64,000 nucleotides of DNA from Bacilli bacterium (GTDB taxonomy: Bacteria; Bacillota_I; Bacilli_A; RFN20; CAG-826): positions 20,884 to 84,883 of the forward strand of contig JAFSNY010000080.1 of NCBI GenBank assembly GCA_017447305.1, given 5' to 3'. The translations under genes and the position numbers were made by a program. The notes beneath the pieces are model-generated. The model was given only the letters and a program-made list of their open reading frames with translations. It had not been told where the DNA came from and did not search any database. Shown here piece after piece: positions 1-53,026 of this stretch (positions are counted from its first letter, which is position 1; each line of letters begins with the position of its first letter).

Positions 1-341
1 AGAAAATTGGAACAAGCACTCCACCAATTAAAACAAGTGATGGCTGGTTAGTCCTTTATCATGGAGTGTCTACTAAAGATGATGCTTACCGTGTTGGAGC
101 GATTCTTCTCGATTTAAAAGATCCTTCCAAGATTCTTGCGAGAACTAAAGATTTCTTAATGGAACCTGAAGAAGAATATGAGACGAATGGCTATTATAAC
201 GGATGTGTCTTCCCAACCGCGACTGTTCCTAAAGATGGTGATTTATACATCTACTATGGCGCGGGAGATAAAGTTATCTGCTTAGCGACATGTAAAGAAA
301 ATGAACTTCTTAAATATTTAAAGGAGGAATGCCATGAATAA
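1..341 (+). CDS. GH130 family glycoside hydrolase / beta-mannoside phosphorylase, C-terminal part. The gene starts upstream of the window, and the frame is open from nt 3.
   Basis: The translation from nt 3 (KIGTSTPPIKTSDGWLVLYHGVSTKDDAYRVGAILLDLKDPSKILART...IYYGAGDKVICLATCKENELL) matches the conserved C-terminal blade of GH130 phosphorylases. It is in frame with the listed ORF 66..341. Confidence 0.7.
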   Translation, partial: KIGTSTPPIKTSDGWLVLYHGVSTKDDAYRVGAILLDLKDPSKILARTKDFLMEPEEEYETNGYYNGCVFPTATVPKDGDLYIYYGAGDKVICLATCKENELLKYLKEECHE

Positions 342-1623
342 AAAGATTAAATTATTCGTCACCGCAGGATTAATCCTTTCTTCTGTTTCTTTGCTTTCTG
401 TCAAAAGTAATAAAACAGGAATTAAAGCGGTGGAAGGAGAATTATATTACGTTGATTTCTTCAATAATTATTTAAGAGAAGAATTCACTCTTTCTAGTGG
501 GTTTACAGGTCGAGGCAATAATGTCATCTATAAGACCGTTCAAGTCACCAAAGACTCCTTAGTGGATAAGCCAGAAGATCCAACAAGAAGAAATTATGAA
601 TTCCAAGGCTGGTATAAAGAAGAAGCTTGCTTAGAAGCGTGGAACTTTGATACTGACAAGGTCATTAAAAACACGAGAATCTTTGCCAAATGGGGAATCT
701 CTAGCAAAGAAGAGATGGTGGAACCAGAATATACACCTCCATCCACGGTGTTAGAAGAAAGTGCGGAAACTGAATATGTTCTTAATTCCGTTATGAACTT
801 TGTTCCTAATGATTTAGATCAAGTTAAGCTTCCAACAGCAGCATTAGAAAAACTCGAAGCTAATAAAAACGACGTTCTTCCACTAATGGAATATAAAGTC
901 AAAGCTAGCAAGAGCATAACTGCGACATATAACAACAATAAAATCACCATTACATGTGGCGATGAGGAGAGAGTTCTTCAAGTCAAAGATGATAGTGAAA
1001 ACTTAACTCTTTCAACTTCTTCTTATGAAACCAAAGCCAAGAATTATGAGAAAAAGGCTCTAGAAGAAGAAAGCTATCACGTCATGCTTGCTGGATCTTC
1101 CTCAATTGAATTCTGGGAATCTTCTAAAGAAGACTTAGCCCCAATCGTTAGCTATAACCACGGTATTGGTGGCACGACGATTGAAGAATGGGATGAAAAA
1201 CTCAATGCGAGACTTGTTCTCCCATATAAACCAAAGATGGTTGTTTATTACGTTGGTATTAATAACGTTATTAACTCCAAGCAAGATAAAGACACCATTT
1301 GGACAAATCTTAAGAAGTTCTTAGATGACACTCATGAGAGTCTTCCAGACACCAAGGTTCAATATATCTTGATGAATTTAATTCCTAACTACACAAGTTA
1401 TTTCGATACGATTAACGCCGTTAATGATCAAGTCATCGAATATCAAAAGAGCAATGAATCATGGTTGACTCTCATTAATCCAGGACTAGCTTTAGTCAAA
1501 GAAAACGGAGTTCCTAACGCGGCATACTTTAGAACCGATGGTCTCCATCTTTCCTATTACGGATATGTCGTTTGGGGAGAAATCGTTAAAGAATCAATCC
1601 TTAACGGACTTGAGAATATGTAA
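334..1623 (+). CDS. Secreted SGNH/GDSL-family hydrolase, a probable carbohydrate esterase, with an N-terminal signal peptide and a Listeria/Bacteroides-type repeat.
   Basis: The N-terminus MNKKIKLFVTAGLILSSVSLLS looks like a signal peptide. The C-terminal half carries SGNH motifs (MLAGSSS..., GGT, DGLHLS). YEFQGWYKEE...W resembles the Flg_new/InlB-B repeat. The start overlaps the GH130 stop. Confidence 0.7.
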   Translation: MNKKIKLFVTAGLILSSVSLLSVKSNKTGIKAVEGELYYVDFFNNYLREEFTLSSGFTGRGNNVIYKTVQVTKDSLVDKPEDPTRRNYEFQGWYKEEACLEAWNFDTDKVIKNTRIFAKWGISSKEEMVEPEYTPPSTVLEESAETEYVLNSVMNFVPNDLDQVKLPTAALEKLEANKNDVLPLMEYKVKASKSITATYNNNKITITCGDEERVLQVKDDSENLTLSTSSYETKAKNYEKKALEEESYHVMLAGSSSIEFWESSKEDLAPIVSYNHGIGGTTIEEWDEKLNARLVLPYKPKMVVYYVGINNVINSKQDKDTIWTNLKKFLDDTHESLPDTKVQYILMNLIPNYTSYFDTINAVNDQVIEYQKSNESWLTLINPGLALVKENGVPNAAYFRTDGLHLSYYGYVVWGEIVKESILNGLENM

Positions 1624-15925: not shown

Positions 15926-16038
15926 GTAAAATAATCCATCTATTAATTAATTGAAGAAAAACTGGTGCTTCCTCACCAGTTTTCTTCATATAATCTAAAA
16001 GATTATGCTATATTATATTTGTGGTTTGGAGGAAGCGT

Positions 16039-17473
16039 TATGAAGAGATTCATTAAAGCATTAACAATACCATTTGTTTTAGGAGCGACATTGTCCTTTT
16101 TTGTTGATTTTGAAAGTAAAGAATTTGTTATCGCTCAAGCTAGTGGCGCGCTTCCCACAACAATATCGTTAAGAGATAATACAGAAACAGAAATTAGGAA
16201 TTATTACAATAACCTTAATTCTCTTGCTGAAAGTGAACTTCAAGGTACAAATCTCTTAAAGAACTTAAAACCAATCCTTTCTAATAACCAAAGAATGTAT
16301 TCATATGATAGAAATAATGGTACAGAAATTTGGCAGTTATATGAAATCATTGATCGCGATTGGGAACTATCTCCTGCAAATGAGATAACCACTGGCACAT
16401 ATGATGAATCGACAAAAACGATTACTGGATATACATATGGAAAAAGCGCCAGTAATCCAGGAGATAATCCATATGTCAGAGCGCTTTATGTTGATCGCTC
16501 AGTAGAAAATCCGATGAAAGCTTGGGGCAACCACAATCAAACATATGGAGGAATCAATAGAGAGCACATATGGCCGAAATCGCATGGTTTTGATGAAGAA
16601 TTAAGTGATTCTGACGGAGCTAGGGGAGACCCAATGCATCTTTGGGCCGCAGATGGATATACCAATAATATTCATAATAATTATTTCTATGGGTATGTTG
16701 ATACTTCAAAAACTTATGTCGACTGCCAAGACAAGATTTCTTATTCCGTGGGCAATTATCTCGGAACATCGAAAACATTAGGAAAAGGCACAGTTTTTGA
16801 ACCTCAAGACTCAGATAAAGGCGATATCGCTCGTGCAGTATTCTACATGGTTGCAAGATATAACAACTACGCAGGCGCAACATCTGGAATTGACGCGAAC
16901 GAGCCAAACCTCATTTTAGAAAATAATCTAGATGGGAATAATGTCACTGGAACATCGACGGCGACCACATCGTTCAGCCTAGGTATTCTTCAAGACTTAC
17001 TTGAATGGAATAAATTAGATCCTGTTGATGACTTTGAAATCCATCGTAATAACTTATTATTCAATAACTATACATTTAATAGAAACCCGTTCATTGATTT
17101 CCCAGAATGGGCAGATTACATTTGGGGAACATCAGAAAATGGTGTTTATGACAACACTAGTAAGGGATTTGCTTCCCCATTAACCGACCCTATAAGCCAA
17201 AACCCATCACCTGAGCCTGGCACTAAAGACGAATCAACTACATCAGAATCAGAAAGCGAGTCAATTGTTCCAATACCAGAACCTCAAGATGAATCACCTA
17301 AATTTGATATGAAAATGATTATCATTATTGGTGCGGTCGTTGTGGCGGTCGTTATCATTTTGATTGTCATCTTTGCTAACGCAAGCAAAAAACAAAAAAA
17401 GAAAATGGTGAAGAGCGCAAAGAAGATTGTTAAAAAATCCTCTTCAAAAAAGAAGAGTTCAAGTAAAAAGTAA
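16039..17473 (+). CDS. Extracellular Endonuclease-I family nuclease with a signal peptide and a C-terminal TM anchor plus a Lys-rich tail
   Basis: REHIWPKSHGF, GDPMHLWAADGYTNNIHNNYFYG and FNRNPFIDFPEWADYIW match the Endonuclease I (EndA/Vvn) motifs. C-terminal IIIIGAVVVAVVIILIVIF is followed by KKQKKK.... The start is preceded by a ggagg RBS. Confidence 0.75.
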
Positions 17474-38977: not shown

Positions 38978-39883
38978 ATGAAACTAGTAATTCTCGCTGC
39001 TGGAATGGGATCGCGTTTCGGTGGACTAAAACAAATGGAACCAATGGATGAATATGGAAACTTCATTCTTGATTATTCCATCTATGATGCAATAAGAGCC
39101 GGATTTGACAGTGTTGTTTTCATTATTAAAAGAGAACACCTCGATATCTTTAGAGAAACAATTGGCAAACGTGTAGAACCATTAATTAAAACGGAATATG
39201 CTTTCCAAGAATTAACAGATTTACCAAAACCATATGTCTGCCCAAAAGATCGTGAAAAACCATGGGGCACCGCGCATGCTATTTTAGCGGCCCGTGACCT
39301 TATCGATGATGATTTCATTATCATCAACGGTGATGACTATTATGGAAAAGAAACATATGAAGTCGCCACAGAATATTTAAGAAGCCTCAAACCAGGTAGC
39401 GAAGGAAGATACGCAAACGTCGCATTTAGAGTGTCTAATACACTTGCAGAAAATGGTTCAGTAAAACGTGGTATTTGCTTCTATGATGGAAGTAGATTAT
39501 TAACTAAGATGATTGAATCAAGCGTTGAAAGAAAAGAGAATGGCGATATCATCGCGACACCTCTTGATACAAATCTTGAACCATTCAAATGCGATCCAAA
39601 TCAACTCGTCTCCATGAACTTATTTATCTTCACAAAAGATATCATTCAAAAGTTAATGGAAAAATTCCCTGAATTCTTAAAAGATAATGTTAATAATTCA
39701 AAAGCTGAATATCTTATTCCTGAAGTTGTCAGCCAACTCGTTAATGGCGGTAAGGCTTCCCTTGAACTTCTCGAAACCCCATCAGTGTGGTATGGAGTGA
39801 CATATCGTGAAGATAAACCAGCGGTTGTCAAAGCTTTGAAAGCTTTAACTGATAAAGGGTTATACAAAAAAGGCTTATATTAG
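38978..39883 (+). CDS. Sugar-phosphate nucleotidyltransferase (LicC/IspD-like NTP-transferase fold)
   Basis: MKLVILAAGMGSRFG is a glycine-rich NTP-binding loop; INGDDYY is present. Confidence 0.6.
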   Translation: MKLVILAAGMGSRFGGLKQMEPMDEYGNFILDYSIYDAIRAGFDSVVFIIKREHLDIFRETIGKRVEPLIKTEYAFQELTDLPKPYVCPKDREKPWGTAHAILAARDLIDDDFIIINGDDYYGKETYEVATEYLRSLKPGSEGRYANVAFRVSNTLAENGSVKRGICFYDGSRLLTKMIESSVERKENGDIIATPLDTNLEPFKCDPNQLVSMNLFIFTKDIIQKLMEKFPEFLKDNVNNSKAEYLIPEVVSQLVNGGKASLELLETPSVWYGVTYREDKPAVVKALKALTDKGLYKKGLY

Positions 39884-39984
39884 AAATAAGAACAATTAAC
39901 AAAAAAGGCATCGTTGATGTCTTTTTTTCATGTTGAATAAAAATATATTTACTATAAAATATATATGCACGGAAAGTATAAATT

Positions 39985-42309
39985 ATGAAAAAGAAATTAT
40001 TAATCCTTTTACCGCTTATTTTCTTAACTCTTTCTGCATGTAATAAACAAAAACCTACATCAGAATCCGAAGAAAAAAGCGAATCTTTAACTAGCAGTGA
40101 AGTGTCCGCTCCTGAAGAAGAGTCTCCAATTGAGAGCGTTGAATCGTTTGCTGATAGTGAAGAATCTGAAACCCATCCATTTGAACCAGAAGAATCAGAA
40201 TCAGAAGAAAGCTTAATTTCAAGTGAAGAAAGCACAATCGAAAGCGAAGAAGAGAGTGTTATTCCTTCCGAAGAAGAGAGTGTTCCACCTCAAGAATCAG
40301 AAGAAGAATCAATCTTTGAATCAGAAGAAGAAAGCATCCTTCCAAGTGAAGCAGAATCTCAAGAAGAATCCATTCCTGTTGAAGAATCTTCTGCAGAAGA
40401 AGTTAGTGAATCTATTGTTGAATCAGAAACTGAAATTGTTTCAGAAGAAGAGTCTGAAATAGAAAGCGAAACTGAAATTTATACTGATTCCAGTGAGTCC
40501 GGAGAAGAGAGTCTGCTTCCTTCTGAAGAGGAATCAATTGCTGAATCTGAAGAAGAAAGTGAAATCATCTCTGAAGAAGAAAGCGAAAGCGAACAACCAG
40601 TTTATGAAAAAGGTCTAGAAGGCGACCCAATTAGAACTGACGCTGTCGCTCAAGATTATTATAAAAATATTTCAAGCACCGCGACTGGCGATAGTCTCGC
40701 TAGTGCTTTATATACACTCGTAAATAAGAATAGATGCACAACCGGATATGGCTCACTTTGGAGTTATTATCCATACTGTGACGCTGATCCAGACAATCCA
40801 TCTAGCAATAAGGTCATCGCGTTCTACCGTGGTACCCCATCAGATTCTGGTTCAATGAATAAAGAACATGTTTGGCCAAATTCTCGTGGAGGAAACCTTG
40901 TTGAGGGTGACCCACATATGACTAGACCAACATTAACGAGTGATAACTCTTCACGTGGCAACTCATTCTATGTTGAAGGTAGATGCTCAACTCAAGATGG
41001 ATGGGATCCAAAAGAAGATGGATTAAATGAGAATTTCCGTGGTGATTCCGCTAGAATTATTTTCTATGCCGCTATTGCAAAATATGGTGAACTTACACTT
41101 GTTGACAAAACAAACGACACTACTAGTAACTATACAATGGGTAAATTATATGACCTCATTAAATGGAATTTTGAATACCCGATTAGCAAATATGAAATTT
41201 TAAGAAATGAAGTTCTTTCTGGTGAAAGAAGCGTTAAAGGATCTAATTATCACTTTAATAGAAATCCATTCATCGATGATAGAACTCTTCCATGTAAGAT
41301 TTGGGGCAATACAAATAGTAATATCAGCGCGCTTTGTCAGATGCATATGCAAAGAAAAGCCCCTACCCAAATTCATTTGAATAAAACATCATTAACTTTA
41401 GGTTTAGAGGAACAATATAAATTAGAAGTAGAATCCGTATCTCCTGCTGATGCATTCACTGGTGTCACTTGGTCAACAAGTGATGATAGTGTTGTCACTG
41501 TTGATGATATAGGAAATATTAAAGCTATTGACCAGGGAGTTGCCACAATCATTGCAACATCAGAGGTTGATAAGAAAATCACCGCGACATGTACTGTTAC
41601 TGTTAAAGCAGAAGATGTCGCTCTTACAAAAATTACTGTTACTTCATCTTTACCTTTAAAGGTAGGATCTACTGGAAAAATTGATGTTGCATACACCCCG
41701 TCCAACGTTTATCCTCGTCCAACATTATCTTTCAGCATCGATGATGATAGTGTCGCTACAGTTGATAATAATGGTGTTGTTACAGGAGTTAGTGAAGGTT
41801 CAGCGGTTGTTACCGTCGAAGCGAAACAAAACGACATTACACGATATGGAAGCTGCGACGTTACTGTCGTTAATAACACAACATTTAAGAAAGTTACAAG
41901 CAATCAAACGAACTGGGAGGGACAATATTTAATTGTTAATGAATCTAATTCCAAAGCGTTTGATTCGTCCGCTTCATCGATTGATAGCAGCGCGAATGCG
42001 ATAAGCGTCTCGATAAGCAATAATGAGATTCAAATGACTGACAAGTTATTAGCGGCGTTAGTTGTGGTTGAGAAGAGTGGGAATAACTACATTATGAAGA
42101 CATCCACTGGATTAACCATTTCTAACAGCAGCAAAAATATTATCACTACCGCTGGAGGAACTACCACAACAACGTTTACAATGAGTGGAACCAATGTAAA
42201 TATCGCTAGTGGAAGTGATTATCTAATTAAATACAATTCAAGTGCGTCAATGTTTAGGTACTACAACACTTCAACTATGCAGAACGTCCAAATGTACAAA
42301 CTTGTTTAA
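39985..42309 (+). CDS. Lipoprotein: an acidic Ser/Glu-repeat linker, an Endonuclease-I family nuclease domain, two Big_2 (Ig-like) domains and a C-terminal domain
   Basis: Lipobox LTLSAC. About 190 aa of SEEES/ESEEE low complexity. NKEHVWPNSRGG, GDPHMTRPTLTSDNSSRGNSFY and FNRNPFIDD are Endonuclease I motifs. VTWSTSDDSVVTVDD...ATIIATS is Big_2. Confidence 0.75.
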   Translation: MKKKLLILLPLIFLTLSACNKQKPTSESEEKSESLTSSEVSAPEEESPIESVESFADSEESETHPFEPEESESEESLISSEESTIESEEESVIPSEEESVPPQESEEESIFESEEESILPSEAESQEESIPVEESSAEEVSESIVESETEIVSEEESEIESETEIYTDSSESGEESLLPSEEESIAESEEESEIISEEESESEQPVYEKGLEGDPIRTDAVAQDYYKNISSTATGDSLASALYTLVNKNRCTTGYGSLWSYYPYCDADPDNPSSNKVIAFYRGTPSDSGSMNKEHVWPNSRGGNLVEGDPHMTRPTLTSDNSSRGNSFYVEGRCSTQDGWDPKEDGLNENFRGDSARIIFYAAIAKYGELTLVDKTNDTTSNYTMGKLYDLIKWNFEYPISKYEILRNEVLSGERSVKGSNYHFNRNPFIDDRTLPCKIWGNTNSNISALCQMHMQRKAPTQIHLNKTSLTLGLEEQYKLEVESVSPADAFTGVTWSTSDDSVVTVDDIGNIKAIDQGVATIIATSEVDKKITATCTVTVKAEDVALTKITVTSSLPLKVGSTGKIDVAYTPSNVYPRPTLSFSIDDDSVATVDNNGVVTGVSEGSAVVTVEAKQNDITRYGSCDVTVVNNTTFKKVTSNQTNWEGQYLIVNESNSKAFDSSASSIDSSANAISVSISNNEIQMTDKLLAALVVVEKSGNNYIMKTSTGLTISNSSKNIITTAGGTTTTTFTMSGTNVNIASGSDYLIKYNSSASMFRYYNTSTMQNVQMYKLV

Positions 42310-42456
42310 AAAGAAGCGGGATATCATATAGTTTTCTTATAAAAATAACACTGAGAGTAAGAATAATCTTGCTCTCTTTTTAATCCAAAAGTTTTTTCTT
42401 TCTTTAATAGAAATGAAAAAAATAGTATAATGCATTCATAAAGCGGAGGACTATAT

Positions 42457-43203
42457 ATGCATAAATTAGTCTTAATTAGACACGGCGAGTCAGAGTGGAA
42501 TAAACTCAATTTATTTACTGGCTGGACTGATGTTGAACTTAGTGAAAAAGGCGTTGAAGAAGCACATCGCGCTGGTAAAGTGCTTAGAGAAAACGGATAT
42601 GACTTTGATGTCGTTCACACCTCATTATTAAAAAGAGCCATTCATACAATGAATAATGTTTTGTTTGAACTCGATAGAGAATGGCTTCCAGTTTATAAGT
42701 CATGGAGACTAAATGAACGTCATTATGGCGCTCTCCAAGGACTTAACAAAGCTGAAACAGCGGCCAAATATGGAGAAGACCAAGTTAAGGTTTGGCGTCG
42801 TTCCTATGATGTACCACCACCAGCACTTGAAAAAGATGATCCAAGAAACCCAGCTCTTCAAGATCAATTCCGTGAAGTAGATCCAAAAGATCTTCCATTA
42901 TGTGAATCACTTGAATTAACTGTTAGAAGAGCGGTTCCATACTTCGAAGAAGTAATTAAACCAGAAATGGAAGCAGGGAAACGCGTTTTAGTGGTCGCTC
43001 ATGGTAACTCACTTCGCGCTCTCGTTAAATACTTCGATAACATGAAGGATGAAGACATCGTTGGTGTTAACATTCCTACTGGTGTTCCACTAGTGTATGA
43101 ATTTGATGACAATATGAAAGCCGTCAACCATTACTACTTAATGGACGAAGAAGAACTCAAAAAACAAATGGACGCTGTTGCCAATCAAGGCAAAGCAAAA
43201 TAA
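42457..43203 (+). CDS. gpmA: 2,3-bisphosphoglycerate-dependent phosphoglycerate mutase
   Basis: [29 protein letters not shown] contains the catalytic RHGE motif; size 248 aa. Confidence 0.9.
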
Positions 43204-43222
43204 AACCTAAATCATTCATGAA

Positions 43223-43250
43223 AAGCGGTATCAACGATATCGCTTTTTTT
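43223..43250 (+). terminator. Rho-independent terminator after gpmA
   Basis: gcggtatc-aac-gatatcgc followed by TTTTTTTC. Confidence 0.7.
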
Positions 43251-43288
43251 CTATGTATTTGAATTTTTATGCTATTATGTATGCACGT

Positions 43289-45307
43289 ATGAAAAAGATT
43301 TATTGTTTGCTACTACTACCATTCCTTCTCAGCGCTTGTGCTCTCAATAGAAGAACACCAACGAGTGAGGAGTCATCAAATCAGAGTGAACCTGTTTCCG
43401 AAAGTAAAGAAGAAAGCGAATTAGAGTCTATTTCAGAAGAGGAGTCTGAAATGGAAACAGAAAGCTCACACGCATTCACCCAACCATCCGAAGAAGAATC
43501 TAAAGAAACTTCAACTGAAACGTATAGTTCGGAAGAAGAAATAGAAAGTGAATTGGATTCTCCTGAGATTATAAGTGAAGAAGAATCAATTCCAGCGGAA
43601 GAATCTTCTCTAGAAGAAAGCGAAGCTGAAGATCTATCAGAATCTGAAGCAGAAGAAGAATCTGTTGAGCCTTCCGAAGAAGAAAGCATTCTCCCTAGTG
43701 AGGAAGAATCTGAAGAAGAGAGCGCCCTTCCAAGTGAAGAAGAAAGTGTTGTTGCTTCCGAAGAAGAATCCGTAATTGAGTCTGAAGAAGAGATTGACTA
43801 CCCATATTTAAGTGGAGATAAGCTTCTTTTAAATCCTTATGGTGATTATGTCACAACCACCAAAGAATCAAGTTCATTACCTGGTTTATATAGTGATTTA
43901 TGCAAAACAGTGAAATCTAGCACGAACGGAGTGTTACAGTCCGTCTATCAAAAAGGATTAGTGGAATTCTTTAATTACGAGAATAAAGTCGATATTAAGT
44001 TAAATATTTCTAGAGATACTCTCGAAGATCTTCAATATGATCACGAAACAAATAACAAAGAATCGTTTAGAGCATGCTCCATCGACATCACTTACTTAGA
44101 TATGACCTTCCATTATGAAGAAGTCGGTATTAGACAAAAAGGTAATACATCACGTGGCTCTATCCTTAATGGTGATGGAGTTAATTCTCGTCACTATAAA
44201 CTTTCATTTGAAGAAACCTTTGATGATGAATATGTCGATGATCCAAAGGTTTGGGTTGATGATGAGGCCTACGAATATCGTAAAGATCGTGACTTCTTTG
44301 GATTAAGTAAGATTGATTTCAGATGGAATCGTAACGCTGATGCGACATACATGAAAGAATACTACGCCTTTGAAATGTATCGTGGCAACGGTAATCTTGC
44401 TGCAAGAACAAATCCAGTTCATTTCATGATGGATGTTGATGGTGAAGTTTTAAATCATGGTGTTTATCTCGCGGTTGAAACTATTACTAAGAGTTTTATC
44501 AAACGTAACTTTGTTAAATCGGCAAGAAATGGTGATTTATACAAATTATCATGGGGAAGTGGACAAGGAGCGAAATTTAATCCTGTTAACGACGACTTCT
44601 TCGGTGTTGAAACACAATATCGAAATGATAATTCTTTCTGGCAACGTAGTTACACCTATGAGTTAAAGACAAATAAAGACACTAGCACCCATGAAGCAAT
44701 TAAAACATTTATTTCCGTACTTAATGAACAACATGGTAACACTGCTTATGAATTCGCTAATCAATATATGAATTATCAGCAATTCCTCACTTATGCATCA
44801 ATCAGTTATTTATTAGGCGATCCAGATGATTTAAGAAGCAATTATAACAACGCTTATATCTATTTCACTGGTGACACTAATCAAATGTATATCATCCCAA
44901 TTGATAATGACCGTGTTCTAGGCGCGAGTGGTGATGGAGGCAATCCAACCGGACATCATGGTGCGCTTTGCAAACCATTTGATAAAGCAACTGGTTATGG
45001 AGGAGAAAATGATTCCAATTTATTTAATAAATTAATTTTCTCAACTAATTCCACAACCATCCGTCCAGAATATATCACCCGTATTGGCGAAATTATCGAT
45101 GATGGGTGGATGAGTATTGATAAATTCCGCGAGTATTATGAAGCTTTCTACGCTCATTACAAGGATGACATCAATCTTTCAAGTAAGGTTCATGGTCAAT
45201 ACGTTGAATTTTCAATTAATGAATCAACAGACATTTATAGCAATCAAAATTTAAGTGCTGAAACATATATGAACACTAAAGTTCAAACATATAACGATAA
45301 CAAATAG
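43289..45307 (+). CDS. Lipoprotein with an acidic Ser/Glu-repeat linker and a CotH-like (atypical kinase fold) domain
   Basis: Start MKKIYCLLLLPFLLSAC (lipobox LSAC). SEEES repeats run over aa ~30-170. YYAFEMYRGNGNLAARTNPVHFMMDVDGEVLNHGVYLAVETITKSFIKRNF...GDLYKLSWG resembles the CotH family. Confidence 0.6.
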   Translation: MKKIYCLLLLPFLLSACALNRRTPTSEESSNQSEPVSESKEESELESISEEESEMETESSHAFTQPSEEESKETSTETYSSEEEIESELDSPEIISEEESIPAEESSLEESEAEDLSESEAEEESVEPSEEESILPSEEESEEESALPSEEESVVASEEESVIESEEEIDYPYLSGDKLLLNPYGDYVTTTKESSSLPGLYSDLCKTVKSSTNGVLQSVYQKGLVEFFNYENKVDIKLNISRDTLEDLQYDHETNNKESFRACSIDITYLDMTFHYEEVGIRQKGNTSRGSILNGDGVNSRHYKLSFEETFDDEYVDDPKVWVDDEAYEYRKDRDFFGLSKIDFRWNRNADATYMKEYYAFEMYRGNGNLAARTNPVHFMMDVDGEVLNHGVYLAVETITKSFIKRNFVKSARNGDLYKLSWGSGQGAKFNPVNDDFFGVETQYRNDNSFWQRSYTYELKTNKDTSTHEAIKTFISVLNEQHGNTAYEFANQYMNYQQFLTYASISYLLGDPDDLRSNYNNAYIYFTGDTNQMYIIPIDNDRVLGASGDGGNPTGHHGALCKPFDKATGYGGENDSNLFNKLIFSTNSTTIRPEYITRIGEIIDDGWMSIDKFREYYEAFYAHYKDDINLSSKVHGQYVEFSINESTDIYSNQNLSAETYMNTKVQTYNDNK

Positions 45308-45312
45308 TAAAA

Positions 45313-46134
45313 ATGGGTAGAAAAGTAGGAGCGTTTGAAAAAAGAATCCACGAAGTGGACCTCATTAGAGGTATTTTGATTCTAATCGTTATTCTCGATC
45401 ATCTTTTCTATTTCCTTAAAACTAATAACCTGGCATGGTATGACCAAACAGGAGCAGAATTCTTTAACGGCATTTACCGCGTTACAAACTTCTATTGGAC
45501 TAGCCAAACAAGAGAAGTAATTAGACAAATTGTCTTATTCTTCTTTGTCTTTATTTCTGGTGTTTCTTGTTCTTTCTCAAGAAATAACTGGAAAAGAGCA
45601 GCGAAAATGATTGTTGTTTGGGGTGTATTAAGTGTTGTCACTAATATTGGTGACCGTTTATTTAACGGCGGTATTGGTGGATGGATTATCGATTTTAATG
45701 TTATCGGTGTCCTTGCTTGGTCTGTTCTTATTTATTGTTTCATGCAGAATTGTTCTTGGAAAGGATTAACCGCGGCAGGATTAATATGTTTCCTTGTTAC
45801 GGTTTTAGTTATTTATCCAATCCCAGCTTCTATTAGAAATCAGATTTATCTTCCTTCAATGTGGGCTCCTGCTTCACTTGTGAGACCAGCAATTGAAGGT
45901 GCGACAGGGCCAAAGGGAGACTGGATGCCTCTCTTCCCGTATATTTGTTACTTCTTCATGGGGGCGGTAGCGGCAAGATTTATCTATAAAGATAAGAAAT
46001 CATTATTTAAGAGACATGAATGGGAAAGATGGATTTGCTTCACTGGAAGAAATACCATCTGGGTTTATTTATTACATGAACCAATCCTTCTAGGTATTTT
46101 TGCCTTATTAGGACTTATTATTGTTGGAGCATAA
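45313..46134 (+). CDS. Polytopic membrane protein (DUF1624/acyltransferase-3-like)
   Basis: EVDLIRGILILIVILDH is an N-terminal motif typical of DUF1624/HGSNAT-like proteins. It has about 8 TM. Confidence 0.5.
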   Translation: MGRKVGAFEKRIHEVDLIRGILILIVILDHLFYFLKTNNLAWYDQTGAEFFNGIYRVTNFYWTSQTREVIRQIVLFFFVFISGVSCSFSRNNWKRAAKMIVVWGVLSVVTNIGDRLFNGGIGGWIIDFNVIGVLAWSVLIYCFMQNCSWKGLTAAGLICFLVTVLVIYPIPASIRNQIYLPSMWAPASLVRPAIEGATGPKGDWMPLFPYICYFFMGAVAARFIYKDKKSLFKRHEWERWICFTGRNTIWVYLLHEPILLGIFALLGLIIVGA

Positions 46135-46138
46135 TCAA

Positions 46139-47800
46139 ATGTTAGATTTAAAAGGAAAAACGATGTATGAAGCGCTTTTAGAGAGTGCGAACGACTTCCC
46201 TAATGGTACGGCAATTTATTACCAAGGGAAGAAGATTTCTTTTAGAAACTTAATTAGACGCATCGACCGTATGGCGGATATTTTATATAATCGTCTTGAT
46301 ATCAAAAGAAATGATGTTGTTTTAATCGCCCAACCTAATATCCCTGACACTTTAGTTATTTTCTACGCTGCAAACAAGATTGGGGCAATCTCTAACTTTG
46401 TTCACCCATTTACCCCGTTTAACCAAGTTCGAGTCATCATGCAAAAAACAAATACGAAAGTCGCCTTCCTCTTTGAACAAAGAATCGCTAAAGAGGTTGA
46501 TCGTTATCGTAAATTAGTGGATAAAATCTATGTCACAAGAATCGAAGATGATTTACCTTTAGCGCAAAAGATTATCTACCATAGTTTTTATAACAACAAA
46601 ATTAGAAAAAAACTTGGAAAGTGGAGAGGTAAGTTCCCTGGATTTAAATATGTCAAAGATTTAAAACCAACAGGCAAAGGCTCACCATTTGTCAAAGGAA
46701 ACGATAAAGAAACATCAATTCTCCTTCATAGTGGATCAACCACCGGAGATCCAAAAACCATATGCTTATCATCGTGGAATTTCAATTTCCTTTCCGAAAG
46801 AGCGTGTGATTTCTTATCTTGTGAACCTGAGTTCATTAGAGGAAAAGGTATGCTTTCTGTTCTTCCATCATTCCATGGTTTTGGTTTATGTATGACCATG
46901 CATGCACCTATGGTAAATCGTTTTGCCTCCATCTTAATGCCTAAGTTTAGCGCGGAAGGCACAGCGAAGATTATGAAACGTATTAAAGTCGCTTCTATCT
47001 GTGGTGTTCCAACCATGTATGAGAATTTATTAAAATGCGATAAATTCACAAAGAGTAAACATCTTAAAGATTTATATGTTTGTTTCTGTGGCGGAGATAC
47101 AATGCCTATTTCTTTAAAAGAAAGATGGGATAAAGCGATGAAAGAAAATGGCTCTAACTGTCAAATCTTTGAAGGATATGGACTTACTGAGGCGGTATGT
47201 GTTAACGCCGTTAATACATATTCCGCGAATAGAGTTGGCTCATTTGGTAAAGCTGCGAGAGACGTAACTTTTAGAATTGTTGATGAAAAAGGTAATGAAG
47301 TTCCTAGAGGCACTATCGGGGAAGTAACATTAAAATCTGAAGCGATGATGAACGGATATTTTAAGGATCCAGAAAATACAAAGAAAGCCATTGTTGATGG
47401 GTGGCTATATACTGGAGACTTAGGTTATATGGACAAAGATGACTTTATTTTCTTTAAGCAAAGAAAAAAGAGAGTTGTTAAAGTCTCTGGTGTTGGTATC
47501 TTCCCAACTGAAATAGAAAGATTAGTGGAAACCGTTCCTGGTGTTGAAGCTGTCTGCGCGATTCGCATTCCTGACGAAAGACTCCAAAGCGCGATAAAAC
47601 TTTTAGTGGTCGCGAAATACTTTGATGAGGAAGGAATGAAGGAAGCGATTATGGATACTTGCTCAAAATATCTAATTCGTTGGGCAATGCCGAAAGAAAT
47701 TGAATTTAGAGATTCTCTCCCTCTCACTCAGCTTGGAAAAGTAGACTTTAGAAAACTGCAAGAAGAGGAAGACGAAAAAAGAGGAATATCTAAAAAGTAA
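46139..47800 (+). CDS. AMP-dependent synthetase/ligase (acyl-CoA synthetase family)
   Basis: AMP-binding motifs LHSGSTTGDPKT (box I), YGLTE, YTGDLGY and KVSG. The start may instead be the ATG at 46163, which is preceded by aaaggaaaa. Confidence 0.8.
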   Translation: MLDLKGKTMYEALLESANDFPNGTAIYYQGKKISFRNLIRRIDRMADILYNRLDIKRNDVVLIAQPNIPDTLVIFYAANKIGAISNFVHPFTPFNQVRVIMQKTNTKVAFLFEQRIAKEVDRYRKLVDKIYVTRIEDDLPLAQKIIYHSFYNNKIRKKLGKWRGKFPGFKYVKDLKPTGKGSPFVKGNDKETSILLHSGSTTGDPKTICLSSWNFNFLSERACDFLSCEPEFIRGKGMLSVLPSFHGFGLCMTMHAPMVNRFASILMPKFSAEGTAKIMKRIKVASICGVPTMYENLLKCDKFTKSKHLKDLYVCFCGGDTMPISLKERWDKAMKENGSNCQIFEGYGLTEAVCVNAVNTYSANRVGSFGKAARDVTFRIVDEKGNEVPRGTIGEVTLKSEAMMNGYFKDPENTKKAIVDGWLYTGDLGYMDKDDFIFFKQRKKRVVKVSGVGIFPTEIERLVETVPGVEAVCAIRIPDERLQSAIKLLVVAKYFDEEGMKEAIMDTCSKYLIRWAMPKEIEFRDSLPLTQLGKVDFRKLQEEEDEKRGISKK

Positions 47801-47827: not shown

Positions 47828-47911
47828 TGCGATCGTGGCGGAATTGGTATACGCGCTAGCCTCAGAAACTAGTGACTTAGTCATGGAAGTTCAAATCTTC
47901 TCGGTCGCACC
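47828..47911 (+). tRNA. tRNA-Leu (anticodon CAG), type II with a long variable arm
   Basis: Acceptor GCGATCG/CGGTCGC; D-arm with GG; anticodon loop CTCAGAA; variable hairpin TGACTTAGTCA; T-arm GGAAG-TTCAAAT-CTTCT; 3' ACCA. There is one C·A mismatch closing the anticodon stem. Confidence 0.75.
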
Positions 47912-48064
47912 AAAAAGGTAGAATTGGTTCAACATAAAAGTGTCGAACCTTTTTTGTATTATGAACTAACATAAATATTTTTAAAAACTCGGATGCAAAA
48001 AAACTAAGAAATATTTTACATTTGCCCCCAAATGTACTAAAATACATTTAGGAGATTTATTGAT

Positions 48065-48451
48065 ATGTTCAATCAGCAAGAATACATTAATGGTTTTATC
48101 AAAGATAAATATAAGACATTAAAAATACGAATTAGAAAAGATAATAAATTGCTTATTTATAAACTTTCTAGTGTTGACAACATCAATAGATATGTTGTTT
48201 CTTTGATATTGGATGATATCTACAAGAATCGTTCATATAAATTTATTAATAACGAAATAAAAATAGATTTCGAATTGTCGAAAACAATGAAAAATCTCGT
48301 TGAAGAAGCTGAAATCGCTGATATCTTGGAAGATTACGGCTTATATATGAATCTTGCAGACGCTATTGATTCTCAAGGAAAAAAAGAAGTTGCGCATCAT
48401 TTATTGAGAGAAAGTCAATGGAAAAAACTAACTAAGAGGTATTGCTTATGA
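48065..48451 (+). CDS. Small hypothetical protein (128 aa), a candidate partner/antitoxin (HipS-like?) of the downstream HipA-like kinase
   Basis: Its stop overlaps the kinase start by 10 nt (ATGATAAAGATGA). It has no HTH. Confidence 0.5.
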   Translation: MFNQQEYINGFIKDKYKTLKIRIRKDNKLLIYKLSSVDNINRYVVSLILDDIYKNRSYKFINNEIKIDFELSKTMKNLVEEAEIADILEDYGLYMNLADAIDSQGKKEVAHHLLRESQWKKLTKRYCL

Positions 48452-49392
48452 TAAAGATGATAGATTTTTCTAATTGCAAATTGAGTTCGAGAAACCTTGA
48501 ATATGGTGGAAGAGCTGGAGAAAAGAAGGGTATTTTTTATAATAACGAGTTTTGGTTTTTAAAATTTCCAAAGAGTACCTCTGGAATGAATGATATCAAA
48601 GGATTGTCCTATGCAACATCTCCTTTAAGTGAATATATAGGCAGTCATATATATCAAATTCTTGGATATGATGTCCACAAAACTCTTTTGGGTATTTGTT
48701 TTGATGGGAAAAGATACAAGGTTGTTTGCGCTTGTAAAGATTTTATTAAAGATGACAAAACCGAATTGCTAATCCCATACACCGCTTTAAGAAATGACAC
48801 AAACCCAGAGGTAATGGGCCGAGATGAAGAATCATCATTGTCTGCATCAAATATTAATGAGATTATTTTTCAACTCGACCACAACACGGTTTTGAAAAAT
48901 ATAAAAAATGCGAAAGAAAGATTTTGGGATGTTGTTCTCATTGATATGCTCATTAATAACAATGATAGAAACGAAGATAATTGGGGAGTTATCAAAGATA
49001 AAACTAACAGCACATATCGTCTATCACCAATTTATGATTGCGGCAATTGCTTTTATGGAAAGACTAGCGAAGAAAGAATTTTAGAAATACTCTCTGATGA
49101 AGCTAGATTGTTAAGCAGTGCCTTAAATGGAATAACAGCTTACGAGGACGATGAAGAAAAAAGAATTAGAAATGAAGATATCGTTAAATTGAATAATGGA
49201 GAACTCCGCAATTCTATTTATAGAGTTTATACTCTATTTTCAAACAAAATGGGCGAAATCACAAATTTTATTAACGAAATACCAGAATCTTATCAAAATG
49301 TTGTTGTGATGAGCAGTCAAAGGAAAAAATACTATATTAAAACAATTATGATTAGGTTGGAAAAGATATTGTTTCCATGCGTTACAAAATAA
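48442..49392 (+). CDS. Short HipA-homologous Ser/Thr kinase (HipT/CtkA-like, lacking the HipA N-terminal subdomain)
   Basis: The Gly-rich loop YGGRAGEKKG resembles HipA VAGAQEKT. The catalytic/Mg motif DMLINNNDRNEDNWGVIKDKTNSTYRLSPIYDCG resembles HipA ...DGHAKNFS...LTPFYD. It is 316 aa, against ~440 for HipA. Confidence 0.65.
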   Translation: MLMIKMIDFSNCKLSSRNLEYGGRAGEKKGIFYNNEFWFLKFPKSTSGMNDIKGLSYATSPLSEYIGSHIYQILGYDVHKTLLGICFDGKRYKVVCACKDFIKDDKTELLIPYTALRNDTNPEVMGRDEESSLSASNINEIIFQLDHNTVLKNIKNAKERFWDVVLIDMLINNNDRNEDNWGVIKDKTNSTYRLSPIYDCGNCFYGKTSEERILEILSDEARLLSSALNGITAYEDDEEKRIRNEDIVKLNNGELRNSIYRVYTLFSNKMGEITNFINEIPESYQNVVVMSSQRKKYYIKTIMIRLEKILFPCVTK

Positions 49393-49452
49393 AAAGTGTT
49401 CCACAACTTTCTACATTTAAAACCCACGTTATTTATTTAAATCGAATCAACT

Positions 49453-50265
49453 CTAATGGCTTTTTTTCTTTGAAAGAAGAATCTTTTTAATTACCCAGTT
49501 TTGGAATTTCTTTGGAGTGATGTTAAGCATTATTAAAAGCGGATTGCGATTAATCTTATATACATATCTTGGTTTCTTCTTAATGAGTATTTTATAAACG
49601 AGATTAGCAATCTTCTCTGGGGGTATTTTCTTATTTTCAACACTATCGACGATACTCTTAAACTTTTCTGCGTTATATTTATATAATTCCGTATTCTTTG
49701 TGAACTCATCAAGACGAGAAGTGGAGACATCTAATAATGACGTGTTGACCGCGCCTGGTCTAATGACCACGACTTGTTTATTGAGCAATTGAAGTTCCAT
49801 TCTTAATGAATAAGCATATTTTTCAATCGTGGATTTTGTTATCGCATAAAGCCCAGTGAATGGCAAAGGATCTAATGGAGCGAGTTCGCTAGAAATCATG
49901 ATGACTTTTCCTCTCTCCTTTAGCATATGAACAAACACTTTATTTAATCGATATATCGCGAAGACATTTATATCAAAGATTTTCATGAAATCTTCTTCAC
50001 TAATTTCGATAAGTGAATTTAGATCATAAATCCCCGCGGTGTTTATAATCGCATCTATCTCTTTTGTAACTTCATTAACTTTATCAAAAGCTTCCAATAT
50101 GGAATTAGAGTCTCTTAAGTTTGTCTTAATGAAAATGAGATTATCAATCTCTTCACTAACTGGCTTGATGTCTAAACCAAAAACTGTGTAGCCATCTTTG
50201 GTTAATCGCTTCGCTATTGCAAGGCCCATTCCACCAGATACACCGGATAGAACAACATATTTCAT
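49453..50265 (-). CDS. Short-chain dehydrogenase/reductase (SDR)
   Basis: MKYVVLSGVSGGMGLAIAKRL is the TGxxxGxG-type cofactor motif, and YAITKSTIE is the YxxxK active site. Confidence 0.8.
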   Translation of the reverse strand: MKYVVLSGVSGGMGLAIAKRLTKDGYTVFGLDIKPVSEEIDNLIFIKTNLRDSNSILEAFDKVNEVTKEIDAIINTAGIYDLNSLIEISEEDFMKIFDINVFAIYRLNKVFVHMLKERGKVIMISSELAPLDPLPFTGLYAITKSTIEKYAYSLRMELQLLNKQVVVIRPGAVNTSLLDVSTSRLDEFTKNTELYKYNAEKFKSIVDSVENKKIPPEKIANLVYKILIKKKPRYVYKINRNPLLIMLNITPKKFQNWVIKKILLSKKKSH

Positions 50266-51400: not shown

Positions 51401-51478
51401 GCGCCTGTAGCTCAGTTGGATTAGAGCATAACCCCCCGAAGGTTAGAGTCACACGTTCAAGTCGTGCCAGGCGCTCCA
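51401..51478 (+). tRNA. tRNA-Arg (anticodon CCG), with atypical C33
   Basis: Acceptor GCGCCTG/CAGGCGC; D-arm GCTC-AGTTGGATTA-GAGC; anticodon stem TAACC/GGTTA with loop CCCCGAA; T-loop TTCAAGT; 3' TCCA. Confidence 0.6.
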
Positions 51479-51529
51479 AAAGATAATTCGAATGCATTTA
51501 AAATATATATCAAAGAGGGATTAAGAATC

Positions 51530-53026
51530 ATGAGCAGACAAGAATTTAAAGATTTAGTATTCTATGAGATTTACCCAACTTCTTTTTATGACTCTAATAA
51601 TGATGGAATTGGAGACTTAAAAGGAATCGAATTAAAACTAGATTATGTTAAAGAATTAGGATGTAACGCAATTTGGTTAAATCCATTCTTTAAATCCCCA
51701 TTTTTCGATGGCGGATATGACGTTGAAGATTTCTTTGATGTCGATCCTCGATTTGGCAATATCGAAGATTTTAAATCCCTCATTAAAACCGCTCATGAAA
51801 AAGGAATCAAAATCATCCTTGATTTAGTCGCAGGACATGCCTCAATAAAAAATAAAGAATTCCAAAAAAGTACAGAGCCAAAAAGAAATGAATATTCTGA
51901 TTTATTTGTCTGGAATGATTCGGTATGGGAATGGAACCCAAATTTCCGTTTAATGGCGGGTATCTATCAAAGAAGTGGTGCGTTCCTCGTTAATTTCTTC
52001 GCACATCAACCAGCATTTAATTACGGATTTAATATCATTGATCGCCCATGGCAAATGTCTTATGAAGATCCAAGAACATATCAAGCAAGAGAATACATGC
52101 TTAAAGTCATGAGACATTGGCTAGGGTTAGGCGCGGATGGCTTTAGAGTCGATATGGCGGACTCCCTTGTCAAAAACGATAACGAAAAAGATGCAACCAT
52201 CAAAGTATGGAAATGTATGTTCTCAATTATCAGAAAAGAATATCCAAATGCATATTTCGTTTCCGAATGGTCCAACCCTTCCAGAGCGTTAGAAGCTGGT
52301 TTTGACGCTGACTTTGTCTTAGACCACTGGGATAACTTCTATCATCACATGGTCAGAAGTAATGAAAACACGAGAGGCAAATCACTCTTGAATGGTAGCG
52401 ATGATTTCGAATATGTCATTAAAGATATGAAATATCGCTTTGAAGAAGCAAATAAGCATGATGCTTATATCGCTCTTATCAGTGGTAATCATGACACTCC
52501 TAGAATTGCAGATTCATTAGATTTAAATAGACTGAAAATGTTCTATCTCTATCAATTAAGTATGCCAGGCACTCCATTCATTTATTATGGTGATGAATTA
52601 ATGATGAAAACAATGCCTCTAGATTCTAAAGATGGCGGTTATCAAAGAACTGGTGTTCGTATCCCGATGGTGTGGAATAACCAAGATAAATATCATGGAT
52701 TCTCGAACACTAAAGGAGAAACATATTTACCATTTTACGATGTAAATAAAGTTTCAGTGGAAGACGCGATTAAAGACGAGGAATCTCTGTATAATTTCAT
52801 CAAGCGTTTAATCGCTCTTAGAAAAGAAAATAGCGGACTACGTACATCAAATTTAGCGATAAAAGAAGATAAAAAGGTCATTGAAATCACTCGTGGAGAT
52901 AATCTCAAAGTTGTCCTCAATTTATCAAATAATGACTATAAGGTTGAAGGTAACATTTTAATTGCGTCCCAAGATGTTAAAGACAATCTTCTCCCTTCAT
53001 TCTCAGGTGCGATTATTAAGCAATAA
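51530..53026 (+). CDS. GH13 alpha-glucosidase (oligo-1,6-glucosidase / alpha-phosphotrehalase-like)
   Basis: VFYEIYPTSFYDSNNDGIGDLKGI, LGCNAIWLNPFFKSP, GYDVEDFFDVDPRFG, GFRVDMAD, EW and GNHD are the conserved GH13 regions I-IV. The start at MSRQEF follows an aaagaggga RBS; the listed ORF start lies inside the tRNA. Confidence 0.85.
   Translation: MSRQEFKDLVFYEIYPTSFYDSNNDGIGDLKGIELKLDYVKELGCNAIWLNPFFKSPFFDGGYDVEDFFDVDPRFGNIEDFKSLIKTAHEKGIKIILDLVAGHASIKNKEFQKSTEPKRNEYSDLFVWNDSVWEWNPNFRLMAGIYQRSGAFLVNFFAHQPAFNYGFNIIDRPWQMSYEDPRTYQAREYMLKVMRHWLGLGADGFRVDMADSLVKNDNEKDATIKVWKCMFSIIRKEYPNAYFVSEWSNPSRALEAGFDADFVLDHWDNFYHHMVRSNENTRGKSLLNGSDDFEYVIKDMKYRFEEANKHDAYIALISGNHDTPRIADSLDLNRLKMFYLYQLSMPGTPFIYYGDELMMKTMPLDSKDGGYQRTGVRIPMVWNNQDKYHGFSNTKGETYLPFYDVNKVSVEDAIKDEESLYNFIKRLIALRKENSGLRTSNLAIKEDKKVIEITRGDNLKVVLNLSNNDYKVEGNILIASQDVKDNLLPSFSGAIIKQ

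Follow-up and report, generated by a model that had tools for sequence, protein, structure and literature searches.

Extracellular CotH-domain proteins are already known from cellulosomes (PMC12774918; PMC12484212), and secreted members of the family are abundant in bacterial and anaerobic-fungal cellulosomes and in gut Firmicutes. The function of the cellulosomal proteins is acknowledged as undefined (PMC6083626; PMC12774918; PMC12484212), and reviews from 2025 describe the role of secreted CotH proteins as still unclear (PMC12774918; PMC12484212). CotH genes have also been reported beside Pel polysaccharide loci with a polyphosphate polymerase in streptococci, clostridia and bifidobacteria (PMC7112168). 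Scavenging of nucleotides by surface nucleases is the norm in reduced-genome Bacilli (PMC12115388), an example being Mpn133 of Mycoplasma pneumoniae, a scavenging membrane nuclease with a Glu/Lys/Ser-rich (EKS) region that is dispensable for catalysis (PMC12115388). Here we analyze a 64-kb stretch of DNA from a Bacilli bacterium (contig JAFSNY010000080.1; the whole 64,000 nucleotides are called the window), in which two open reading frames (ORFs) at 39985-42309 (774 aa) and 43253-45307 (684 aa) lie on either side of gpmA (42457-43203). As a preliminary description of this DNA had it, with exact ORF coordinates, both flanking genes encode lipoproteins with a lipobox, the first a nuclease and the second a CotH protein. 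With moderate confidence, we interpret their products as enzymes independent of each other, each lipid-anchored and carried on a polyanionic spacer stalk: the first is a nuclease for scavenging that bears Ig-like spacers and a beta-trefoil, the second a catalytically competent CotH protein whose subfamily works with alpha-glucan acquisition. The parts of the two proteins are as follows.

39985..40041, plus strand: lipoprotein signal peptide of the nuclease, MKKKLLILLPLIFLTLSAC, with lipobox LSAC and Cys19 (translation, motif scan)
40042..40620, plus strand: acidic Ser/Glu-rich low-complexity stalk of the nuclease, residues ~20-212
40684..41280, plus strand: Endonuclease I domain, residues 234-432 (Pfam PF04231, 57.9 bits against a cut-off of 25)
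41362..41844, plus strand: two Big_2 Ig-like domains, about residues 460-620 (Pfam PF02368, two stretches, E=8e-16)
41872..42306, plus strand: C-terminal beta-trefoil domain of the nuclease, residues 630-774 (structure prediction)
43289..43339, plus strand: probable true start (M13) and signal peptide of the CotH protein, MKKIYCLLLLPFLLSAC
43340..43819, plus strand: acidic Ser/Glu-rich stalk of the CotH lipoprotein, residues ~30-189
43820..45304, plus strand: CotH kinase-fold domain, residues 190-684
44825-44827, plus strand: catalytic-loop Asp, D525 (profile alignment, invariant columns)
44903-44911, plus strand: metal-binding Asp residues, D551 and D553 (profile alignment)

The assignment of a CotH-like domain to the second protein withstood the hidden Markov model search, in which PF08757 matched residues 295-650 at 73.2 bits against a Pfam cut-off of 23.8, and the proposed kinase fold was borne out by structure prediction. 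The AlphaFold (AF2) model of the domain has a predicted local distance difference test score (pLDDT) of 95.3 and was matched by Foldseek to the Bacillus CotH structures 5JD9 and 5JDA (E=1.6e-15, target TM score 0.72), with HipA- and CtkA-type kinases far behind. A single-sequence phmmer search of the PDB with the domain returned no match; a 60-sequence profile matched B. cereus CotH (5JD9, E=4.8e-11). The N-terminal part of the protein had no Pfam match at E-values up to 10. In the profile alignment the window motifs GDPDD...N.NN and IPIDNDR align with 'NFDGFVHN' and 'PWDYD' of 5JD9, placing D525 and D551 on the 'NFD' and 'WDYD' Asp residues, whose spacing, given as 23 residues, is that of D228 and D251 in B. 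subtilis CotH, where their substitution inactivates the kinase (PMC7821199). Neither window residue varies among 60 homologues with 28-65% identity to the window protein or among 76 representatives of 50%-identity clusters. Conservation extends to the catalytic-loop residues N530, N532 and N533, and in the motifs GIRxKGNxS, GDLYK and LKTNK it is as strong as at the two Asp. Judged from its sequence, the protein is a CotH family member with a predicted intact active site.

The preliminary description regarded a surface-exposed CotH lipoprotein as unusual, which did not hold. An exhaustive HMMER scan over 1.84 billion cluster representatives returned 152 at E<=1e-30 and 828 at E<=1e-3, and a pattern scan of one genome per species recovered relatives from no fewer than 365 species; among them are Acholeplasma laidlawii, many Anaeroplasmataceae and, within the Clostridia, Oscillospiraceae, Faecousia and Lachnospiraceae. 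Lipobox-like motifs are present in 55 of 76 non-redundant representatives, and in nearly all of 86 CotH loci, those of walled Clostridia included, a lipobox is followed by a low-complexity linker of 20-120 residues. This wide occurrence with a lipobox indicates that the CotH lipoprotein is not an oddity of the window. It had also been suggested that the enzyme might be a glycan or polyphosphate kinase. No Pel genes, polyphosphate polymerase, DUF4956 or DUF4832 were found near the window CotH gene or in 83 related loci, and an association with polyphosphate or Pel was rejected for want of such neighbours. The glycan half of that suggestion gains support from the starch modules of the relatives and from their glycoside hydrolase family 13 (GH13) and transporter neighbours.

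In 63 of the 86 loci the CotH protein has ~100 extra C-terminal residues with the pattern YY.RG..N.W...FK[IV]...WYG...N[IV]..G.Y, a SusE/F-like module that is also present in 42 of the top 120 homologues and 17 of the 76 non-redundant representatives. Searched against the PDB, a 22-segment profile of this module matched the dextran-binding lipoprotein BT3088 (E=1.6e-9), SusF (E=2.4e-7) and an alpha-amylase (E=1.5e-4), and individual members match Pfam SusF_SusE, CBM53, X25 and AMPK1_CBM. Further fusions are to CBM26 (6 of 76 representatives; above cut-off in P0050, L039, L052, where it occurs twice, L054 and L064), to PUD (P0074) and to X25 (one representative), the only other targeting module being dockerin (2/76). 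A GH13 gene lies directly 3' of the CotH gene or in the same gene string in loci of different lineages (L007, L024, L026, L033, L053 and L059), in ten loci it is flanked by a CUT1-type sugar ATP-binding cassette (ABC) transporter, in most cases together with the binding lipoprotein, and in 19 Clostridia loci a GlgB-like gene precedes it. Together these neighbours occur in 33 of 83 loci, a raw count to which many phylogenetically clustered loci contribute. The window CotH protein is 45-53% identical over 98-100% of the domain to P0043, P0028 and P0050, which bear carbohydrate-binding modules (CBMs), and by this orthology criterion belongs to the starch-targeted subfamily as we define it here. 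A search limited to the papers of one library found no relevant paper joining CotH with starch or starch binding, or with Mollicutes-type lineages, and we put the CotH–alpha-glucan link forward as an unreported lead.

Two recurrent arrangements were observed among the CotH loci. A conserved lipoprotein of about 247 residues (lipo247; 9 loci) is encoded directly 5' of CotH in L013, L014, L015, L019, L022 and L023 (Anaeroplasmataceae), with the transporter's sugar-binding lipoprotein on its other side, and may, from this position, be a further component of the same surface system. In 19 Clostridia metagenome-assembled genomes (MAGs; L030-L083) a fixed string comprises a GlgB-like gene, an Fe-S aldo/keto reductase on the opposite strand, an ArsB/NhaD-type permease (14 loci) and the CotH lipoprotein gene, and then, on the opposite strand, a hexapeptide-repeat protein and a helix-turn-helix-fused phosphoglucomutase/GlmM-like gene (17 loci each), an apparent tie, drawn from gene order, of CotH to sugar-phosphate metabolism.

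The presence of binding modules in relatives, and a surface-exposed protein held on a long stalk, would also suit a CotH domain acting as a non-catalytic adhesin or structural module, as proposed for the CotH invasins of Mucorales and for cellulosomal CotH proteins, which according to reviews may be structural components (PMC12484212). We consider this unlikely because both catalytic Asp residues, the catalytic-loop Asn and GIRxKGNxS are invariant across homologues that are only 28-65% identical, which argues for retained catalysis, and because the relatives bind through separate CBMs rather than through the CotH domain itself.

For the nuclease, Pfam matches above cut-off agree with the Endonuclease-I domain and two Big_2 domains first proposed, to which the C-terminal beta-trefoil, missed in the preliminary description, has to be added. 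This C-terminus had no Pfam match at E-values up to 10, NCBIfam gave no match anywhere in the nuclease, and the trefoil was resolved only by structure prediction. It accompanies the nuclease in 43 of the retrieved homologues and may serve as a binding module. In the PDB, the Big_2 region matches Ig-like repeats from Hoc and phage fibre proteins. All nuclease homologues read retain the motifs NKEHVWP and NRNPFID, and by analogy to the Vvn/EndA family we take the EHVWP and NRNPFID motifs to be catalytic. Going by this domain make-up, the protein most likely degrades extracellular nucleic acid for nucleotide scavenging. With these two genes, known families (CotH, Endonuclease I, Big_2, beta-trefoil) gain new members, which automatic annotation already labels accordingly; apart from this, there is nothing exceptional about the nuclease, the linkers or gpmA.

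At the N-terminus of each protein, a basic n-region and a hydrophobic h-region precede an LSAC lipobox (translation, motif scan), the three elements by which a bacterial lipoprotein was recognized here (positive n-region, hydrophobic h-region and lipobox [LVI][ASTVI][GAS]C), and the lipobox is conserved in homologues of both. The lipidated Cys of the CotH protein is residue 29 in the 684-aa numbering, and the NCBI model of this protein, MBR0295570.1 (672 aa), starts at M13 (43289). The long Ser/Glu-rich (S/E) linkers behind the anchors are as first described. Residues 19-212 of the nuclease (194 residues) contain 73 E and 48 S with a net charge of -71, and residues 29-190 of the CotH protein (162 residues) contain 59 E and 38 S with a net charge of -58. 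The nuclease stalk is built of degenerate SEEESxxP-like 8-residue units. These are the only two long S/E tracts within the window, the third lipoprotein (a solute-binding protein at 60276, minus strand) having none. In a species with proteins 65% identical (L003) the linkers are only about 50-90 residues long, and across lineages they are T/S/G-rich, N-rich, P/E/K-rich or S/E-rich, or are sometimes replaced by Big_2 domains. The S/E stalk of the window is thus an expanded, species-specific version of a generic post-lipobox spacer, in a style used by three surface proteins of this genome. The two stalked lipoproteins had been called paralogous. A BLASTP comparison found nothing beyond the signal peptide ('SAC..PTSE' at the cleavage site), globular paralogy was therefore rejected, and the term fits the style of the linkers at most.

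A second Endonuclease_1 paralogue was observed at 15965-17473 (plus strand), listed as 502 aa from a GTG and with a likely internal start at MKRFIK... Besides an N-terminal signal sequence and a Lys-rich tail, it carries a C-terminal transmembrane helix that is preceded by a short acidic stalk ('TSESESESIVPIPEPQDES'), combining the same stalk style as the lipoprotein nuclease with the opposite anchoring topology.

The genes and signals around the two lipoprotein genes are given below.

39933..39960, plus strand: promoter-like site TTGAAT-16-TAAAAT, 5' of the nuclease gene (consensus scan only)
42353..42376, plus strand: terminator-like hairpin 3' of the nuclease gene
42404-42431: promoter-like site of gpmA itself (consensus scan)
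42457..43203, plus strand: gpmA, 2,3-bisphosphoglycerate-dependent phosphoglycerate mutase (NCBIfam NF010713, 415.6 bits against a cut-off of 305)
43220-43248: terminator of gpmA (terminator-like hairpin)
45313..46134, plus strand: membrane acyltransferase, HGSNAT_cat / Acyl_transf_3 (Pfam)
46121..47800, plus strand: AMP-forming acyl-CoA ligase-like gene (Pfam AMP-binding)
51464..53026, plus strand: cytoplasmic-type GH13 alpha-glucosidase/TreS-like gene

A terminator-like hairpin of the preceding gene sits just 5' of the nuclease promoter-like site, and gpmA, bounded by signals of its own, is a housekeeping gene that shares no system with its flanking genes. The acyltransferase gene begins 5 nt past the CotH stop codon with no terminator-like hairpin between them, suggesting that the two are probably co-transcribed, and the acyl-CoA ligase-like gene, which matches NCBIfam fatty-acid-CoA ligase subfamilies only below their cut-offs, overlaps the end of the acyltransferase gene. 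Since enzymes of the Acyl_transf_3 and HGSNAT kinds transfer acyl groups to extracytoplasmic glycans, the functional partner of CotH would seem to be a glycan, either incoming or on the surface, and not the nuclease. In L003 the whole order of NUDIX, NTP-transferase, nuclease, gpmA, CotH, acyltransferase and acyl-CoA ligase is kept. At 57% identity (L004) nuclease and gpmA are absent from the neighbourhood and CotH, acyltransferase and ligase are still together, so that the nuclease-gpmA-CotH order is found in strain L001 and in L003 but not in L004, whereas the CotH-acyltransferase-acyl-CoA-ligase trio is conserved in all three. The window GH13, 6 kb downstream of CotH, is 42% identical to the CotH-adjacent GH13 of L026.

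The 8-mer TATGCACG was seen just twice in the window, at 39964-39971 and 43280-43287 (plus strand), each time a few bases past a -10-like element and just 5' of the start codon of a stalked lipoprotein gene; chance alone gives two occurrences somewhere in the window fairly often (30 of 100 shuffles), and the placement is the odd part. Ahead of ATG 43289 the CotH gene has, at a distance of ~10 nt, an extended -10-like element (TGcTATTAT) and no Shine-Dalgarno sequence, from which its mRNA may be leaderless.

The nuclease matches MBR0295568.1 at 100% identity and the CotH gene falls in the cluster of MBR0295570.1; both records come from a 'Bacilli bacterium' MAG. Relatives come from MAGs of rumen, reindeer, roe deer, chicken and human gut that are labelled Anaeroplasmataceae, Acholeplasmatales, Mollicutes or Erysipelotrichaceae. 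TGA serves as stop codon in 5 of 46 window ORFs, indicating that the organism is not a mycoplasma with genetic code 4. The preliminary description took it to be wall-less; no peptidoglycan-synthesis family was found among the Pfam matches listed for 40 other ORFs of the 64-kb window, candidate and related orders contain both wall-less and walled species (PMC10868615), and wall status is not decidable from the window. At 334-1623 (plus strand) the window also encodes a secreted protein with a Listeria-Bacteroides repeat (Flg_new) and a GDSL lipase/acylhydrolase domain, which adds to the surface or secreted enzymes of the organism.

Under the interpretation that we favour, each enzyme would be made as a lipoprotein and anchored through its N-terminal Cys, and a stalk of 160-190 acidic Ser/Glu residues, presumably disordered, would space it from the membrane. 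The nuclease would cut extracellular DNA or RNA, with the nucleotides being scavenged. The CotH enzyme, probably co-transcribed with the membrane acyltransferase and the acyl-CoA ligase, would most likely work at the cell surface, where it would perform a phosphoryl-transfer-type reaction on incoming or surface glycan or alongside it. The analyses show the anatomy and fold, the conservation of the active site, the distribution, the domain fusions and the gene neighbourhoods; both substrates, the kinase chemistry and the extracellular source of a phosphate donor are what we infer from sequence and context. Several points weigh against this interpretation. Disorder of the stalks is predicted from composition, the activity, localization and expression of both enzymes are likewise predicted, the binding role of the beta-trefoil is putative, and a classical kinase reaction at the surface is problematic, ATP being scarce outside cells. 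The adjacency counts for GH13 are raw values without a background frequency, and the 19 GlgB-adjacent loci are probably a single Clostridia lineage. The window CotH protein ends with the CotH domain and lacks a starch-binding module, neither GH13 nor sugar-transporter genes adjoin its own gene, and the same is true for modules and neighbours in L001, L003 and L004, so that the glucan link is transferred from relatives that are 45-53% identical.

Alternatively, the CotH lipoprotein could be a surface protein kinase, its substrates being the Ser-rich acidic stalks of itself and of the nuclease (Fam20C-like S-x-E) or host or other proteins. Its active site is intact, CotH polyphosphorylates the Ser-rich repeats of CotB and CotG and is a distant relative of Fam20C (PMC7821199), 19 of the 48 linker serines in the nuclease and 18 of the 38 in the CotH protein stand in an S-x-E context, and the two S/E-stalked genes are neighbours in two genomes. 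We nevertheless regard this as improbable. Known CotH substrates are basic (Ser/Lys/Arg) rather than acidic repeats (PMC7821199), and in relatives the linkers are T-, N-, G-, P- or K-rich, or are Big_2 domains, instead of S/E, indicating that an S/E substrate is not conserved with the CotH enzyme; moreover, adjacency to the nuclease is gone at 57% identity and the extracellular ATP supply is doubtful.

A more specific proposal, to which we likewise assign little probability, is that the CotH lipoprotein subfamily acts as an extracellular glycan kinase or phosphotransferase that modifies alpha-glucans (starch or glycogen) at the bacterial surface and so opens them for uptake, comparable to plant glucan-water dikinase or to Fam20B and POMK, the glycan kinases of the secretory pathway. 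If true, this would give a function to secreted CotH proteins, cellulosomal ones included, and the CBM-less stalked enzyme of the window would work with the co-transcribed membrane acyltransferase on surface or incoming glycan.

It is very improbable that the S/E tracts are contingency repeats, in which recombination or slippage varies stalk length or swaps sequence between the genes. The linker DNA had been described as near-identical repeats with potential for recombination or length variation, and the two tracts do have peptide motifs in common, such as SEEESILPSE. However, exact runs common to 40.0-40.7 kb and 43.3-43.85 kb do not exceed 14 nt, blastn at best aligned the linker regions over 77 nt at 79% identity, repeat families are 60-88% identical (repeat finder), and Tandem Repeats Finder reported only two-copy imperfect arrays with periods of 24 and 36. 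At 165 positions with coinciding 8-residue peptide windows 90 codons are identical, compared to expectations of 89 from codon usage and 84 +/- 5 by permutation (P=0.13), and linker Ser is encoded by all six codons, used about evenly. The likeness of the linker DNA, being at chance level, therefore reflects GAA-rich coding of an S/E peptide, that is, composition and codon usage, and such degenerate DNA has low recombination potential. Recent gene conversion between the linkers was rejected on the negative permutation test. Strain comparison gave little length variation. L001, with 95.3% DNA identity over 10.6 kb, has a CotH protein of unchanged length in which 156 of 162 linker residues agree, and its nuclease, at 780 rather than 774 aa, differs in length by a single 6-residue indel where the linker has diverged locally; all variants on record have a nuclease of 774 or 780 aa and a CotH protein of 684 aa, or 672 when modelled from M13. 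The indel with its local divergence would suit contingency repeats, as would the slightly faster divergence of linkers than of globular parts between the window and L001 (89% versus 94%, and 96% versus 98%). Contingency loci are defined by near-perfect tandem DNA repeats with unit-wise length polymorphism across strains, whereas we find degenerate repeats, one 18-nt indel in the nuclease gene and none in the CotH gene, and the contingency reading is largely refuted.

The listed ORFs 39828-40235 (minus strand), 40223-40462 (plus strand) and 43381-43689 (minus strand) fall inside or antisense to the linker regions, and with their Ser- or Lys-rich translations are by-products of GAA/TCN-rich coding repeats rather than genes. 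The sole break in the alignment with L001 is at 47913-49469, beside tRNA-Leu(CAG) (47829-47912), where the window has an ORF (48442-49392, 316 aa) in place of the AAA_14/DUF4143 ATPase gene of L001; this is a strain-variable insertion spot.

That the CotH gene is a spore-coat leftover from a sporulating ancestor is scarcely credible and largely refuted, since, despite the descent of the lineage from sporulating Bacilli (PMC10868615) and a family name and fold as in the spore-coat kinase, the protein carries a lipoprotein export signal, is just 15% identical to B. cereus CotH and has no cotB/cotG-like neighbours, while its subfamily occurs in the non-sporulating Acholeplasma laidlawii and its strong conservation and starch-binding fusions indicate an active, different role.

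The two lipid-anchored, stalked enzymes that we propose make the locus itself ordinary, an instance of surface enzymes on a species-specific expanded stalk, and the lead that comes from it specific. It illustrates enzyme display in reduced-genome gut Bacilli by a lipid anchor and a long polyanionic stalk, the composition of which appears to be a lineage-level style and not a recombination device. The combination of starch-module fusions, alpha-glucoside uptake loci and an intact kinase site among the relatives provides a testable clue to the function of secreted CotH proteins.

Compared to Mpn133, the window nuclease is likewise a lipoprotein nuclease of a reduced-genome, Bacilli-derived lineage with a charged low-complexity region. 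Mpn133 is, however, of the thermonuclease (SNase) type with a 39-residue EKS tract inside the protein, whereas the window nuclease is of the Endonuclease I type, with a purely acidic tract of ~190 residues after the lipid anchor and with Big_2 and beta-trefoil domains. The closest structural counterpart of the CotH protein, Bacillus CotH (PF08757; 5JD9/5JDA), belongs to the same Pfam family and shares the atypical kinase fold and the catalytic and metal-binding Asp residues, but the window protein is 15% identical to it and ~140 residues larger. Spore-coat CotH is a cytoplasmic protein of the mother cell, with cotB/cotG neighbours in a sporulating host; the window protein, exported, lipid-anchored and without CotB/CotG partners, is not such a CotH. 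The Pel-associated CotH is likewise a homologue in non-sporulating bacteria, and is tied to an extracellular polysaccharide system (PMC7112168). SusE and SusF resemble the CotH subfamily in being surface lipoproteins, in that the C-terminal module of many subfamily members is homologous to the starch- and dextran-binding domains of SusF and BT3088, and in having genes that adjoin sugar-uptake and GH13 genes. They are outer-membrane proteins of Bacteroidota without an enzyme domain, whereas the CotH relatives carry the module on a kinase-fold enzyme in monoderm lineages; unlike SusE/SusF, the window CotH protein itself has no binding module. The cellulosomal CotH proteins (CseP/Cthe_0044 of C. 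thermocellum, Ccel_1101 of R. cellulolyticum and the CotH-dockerins of anaerobic fungi) are likewise extracellular CotH domains on polysaccharide-degrading machinery. They are anchored by dockerins, whereas the window protein is held by lipid and stalk and has no CBM, and they are directed at plant cell walls, whereas the relatives of the window protein are starch-targeted (SusE/F-like, CBM26, PUD, X25). The lipoprotein CotH subfamily with its starch-specific targeting is thus an uncharacterized variant of the extracellular CotH proteins.

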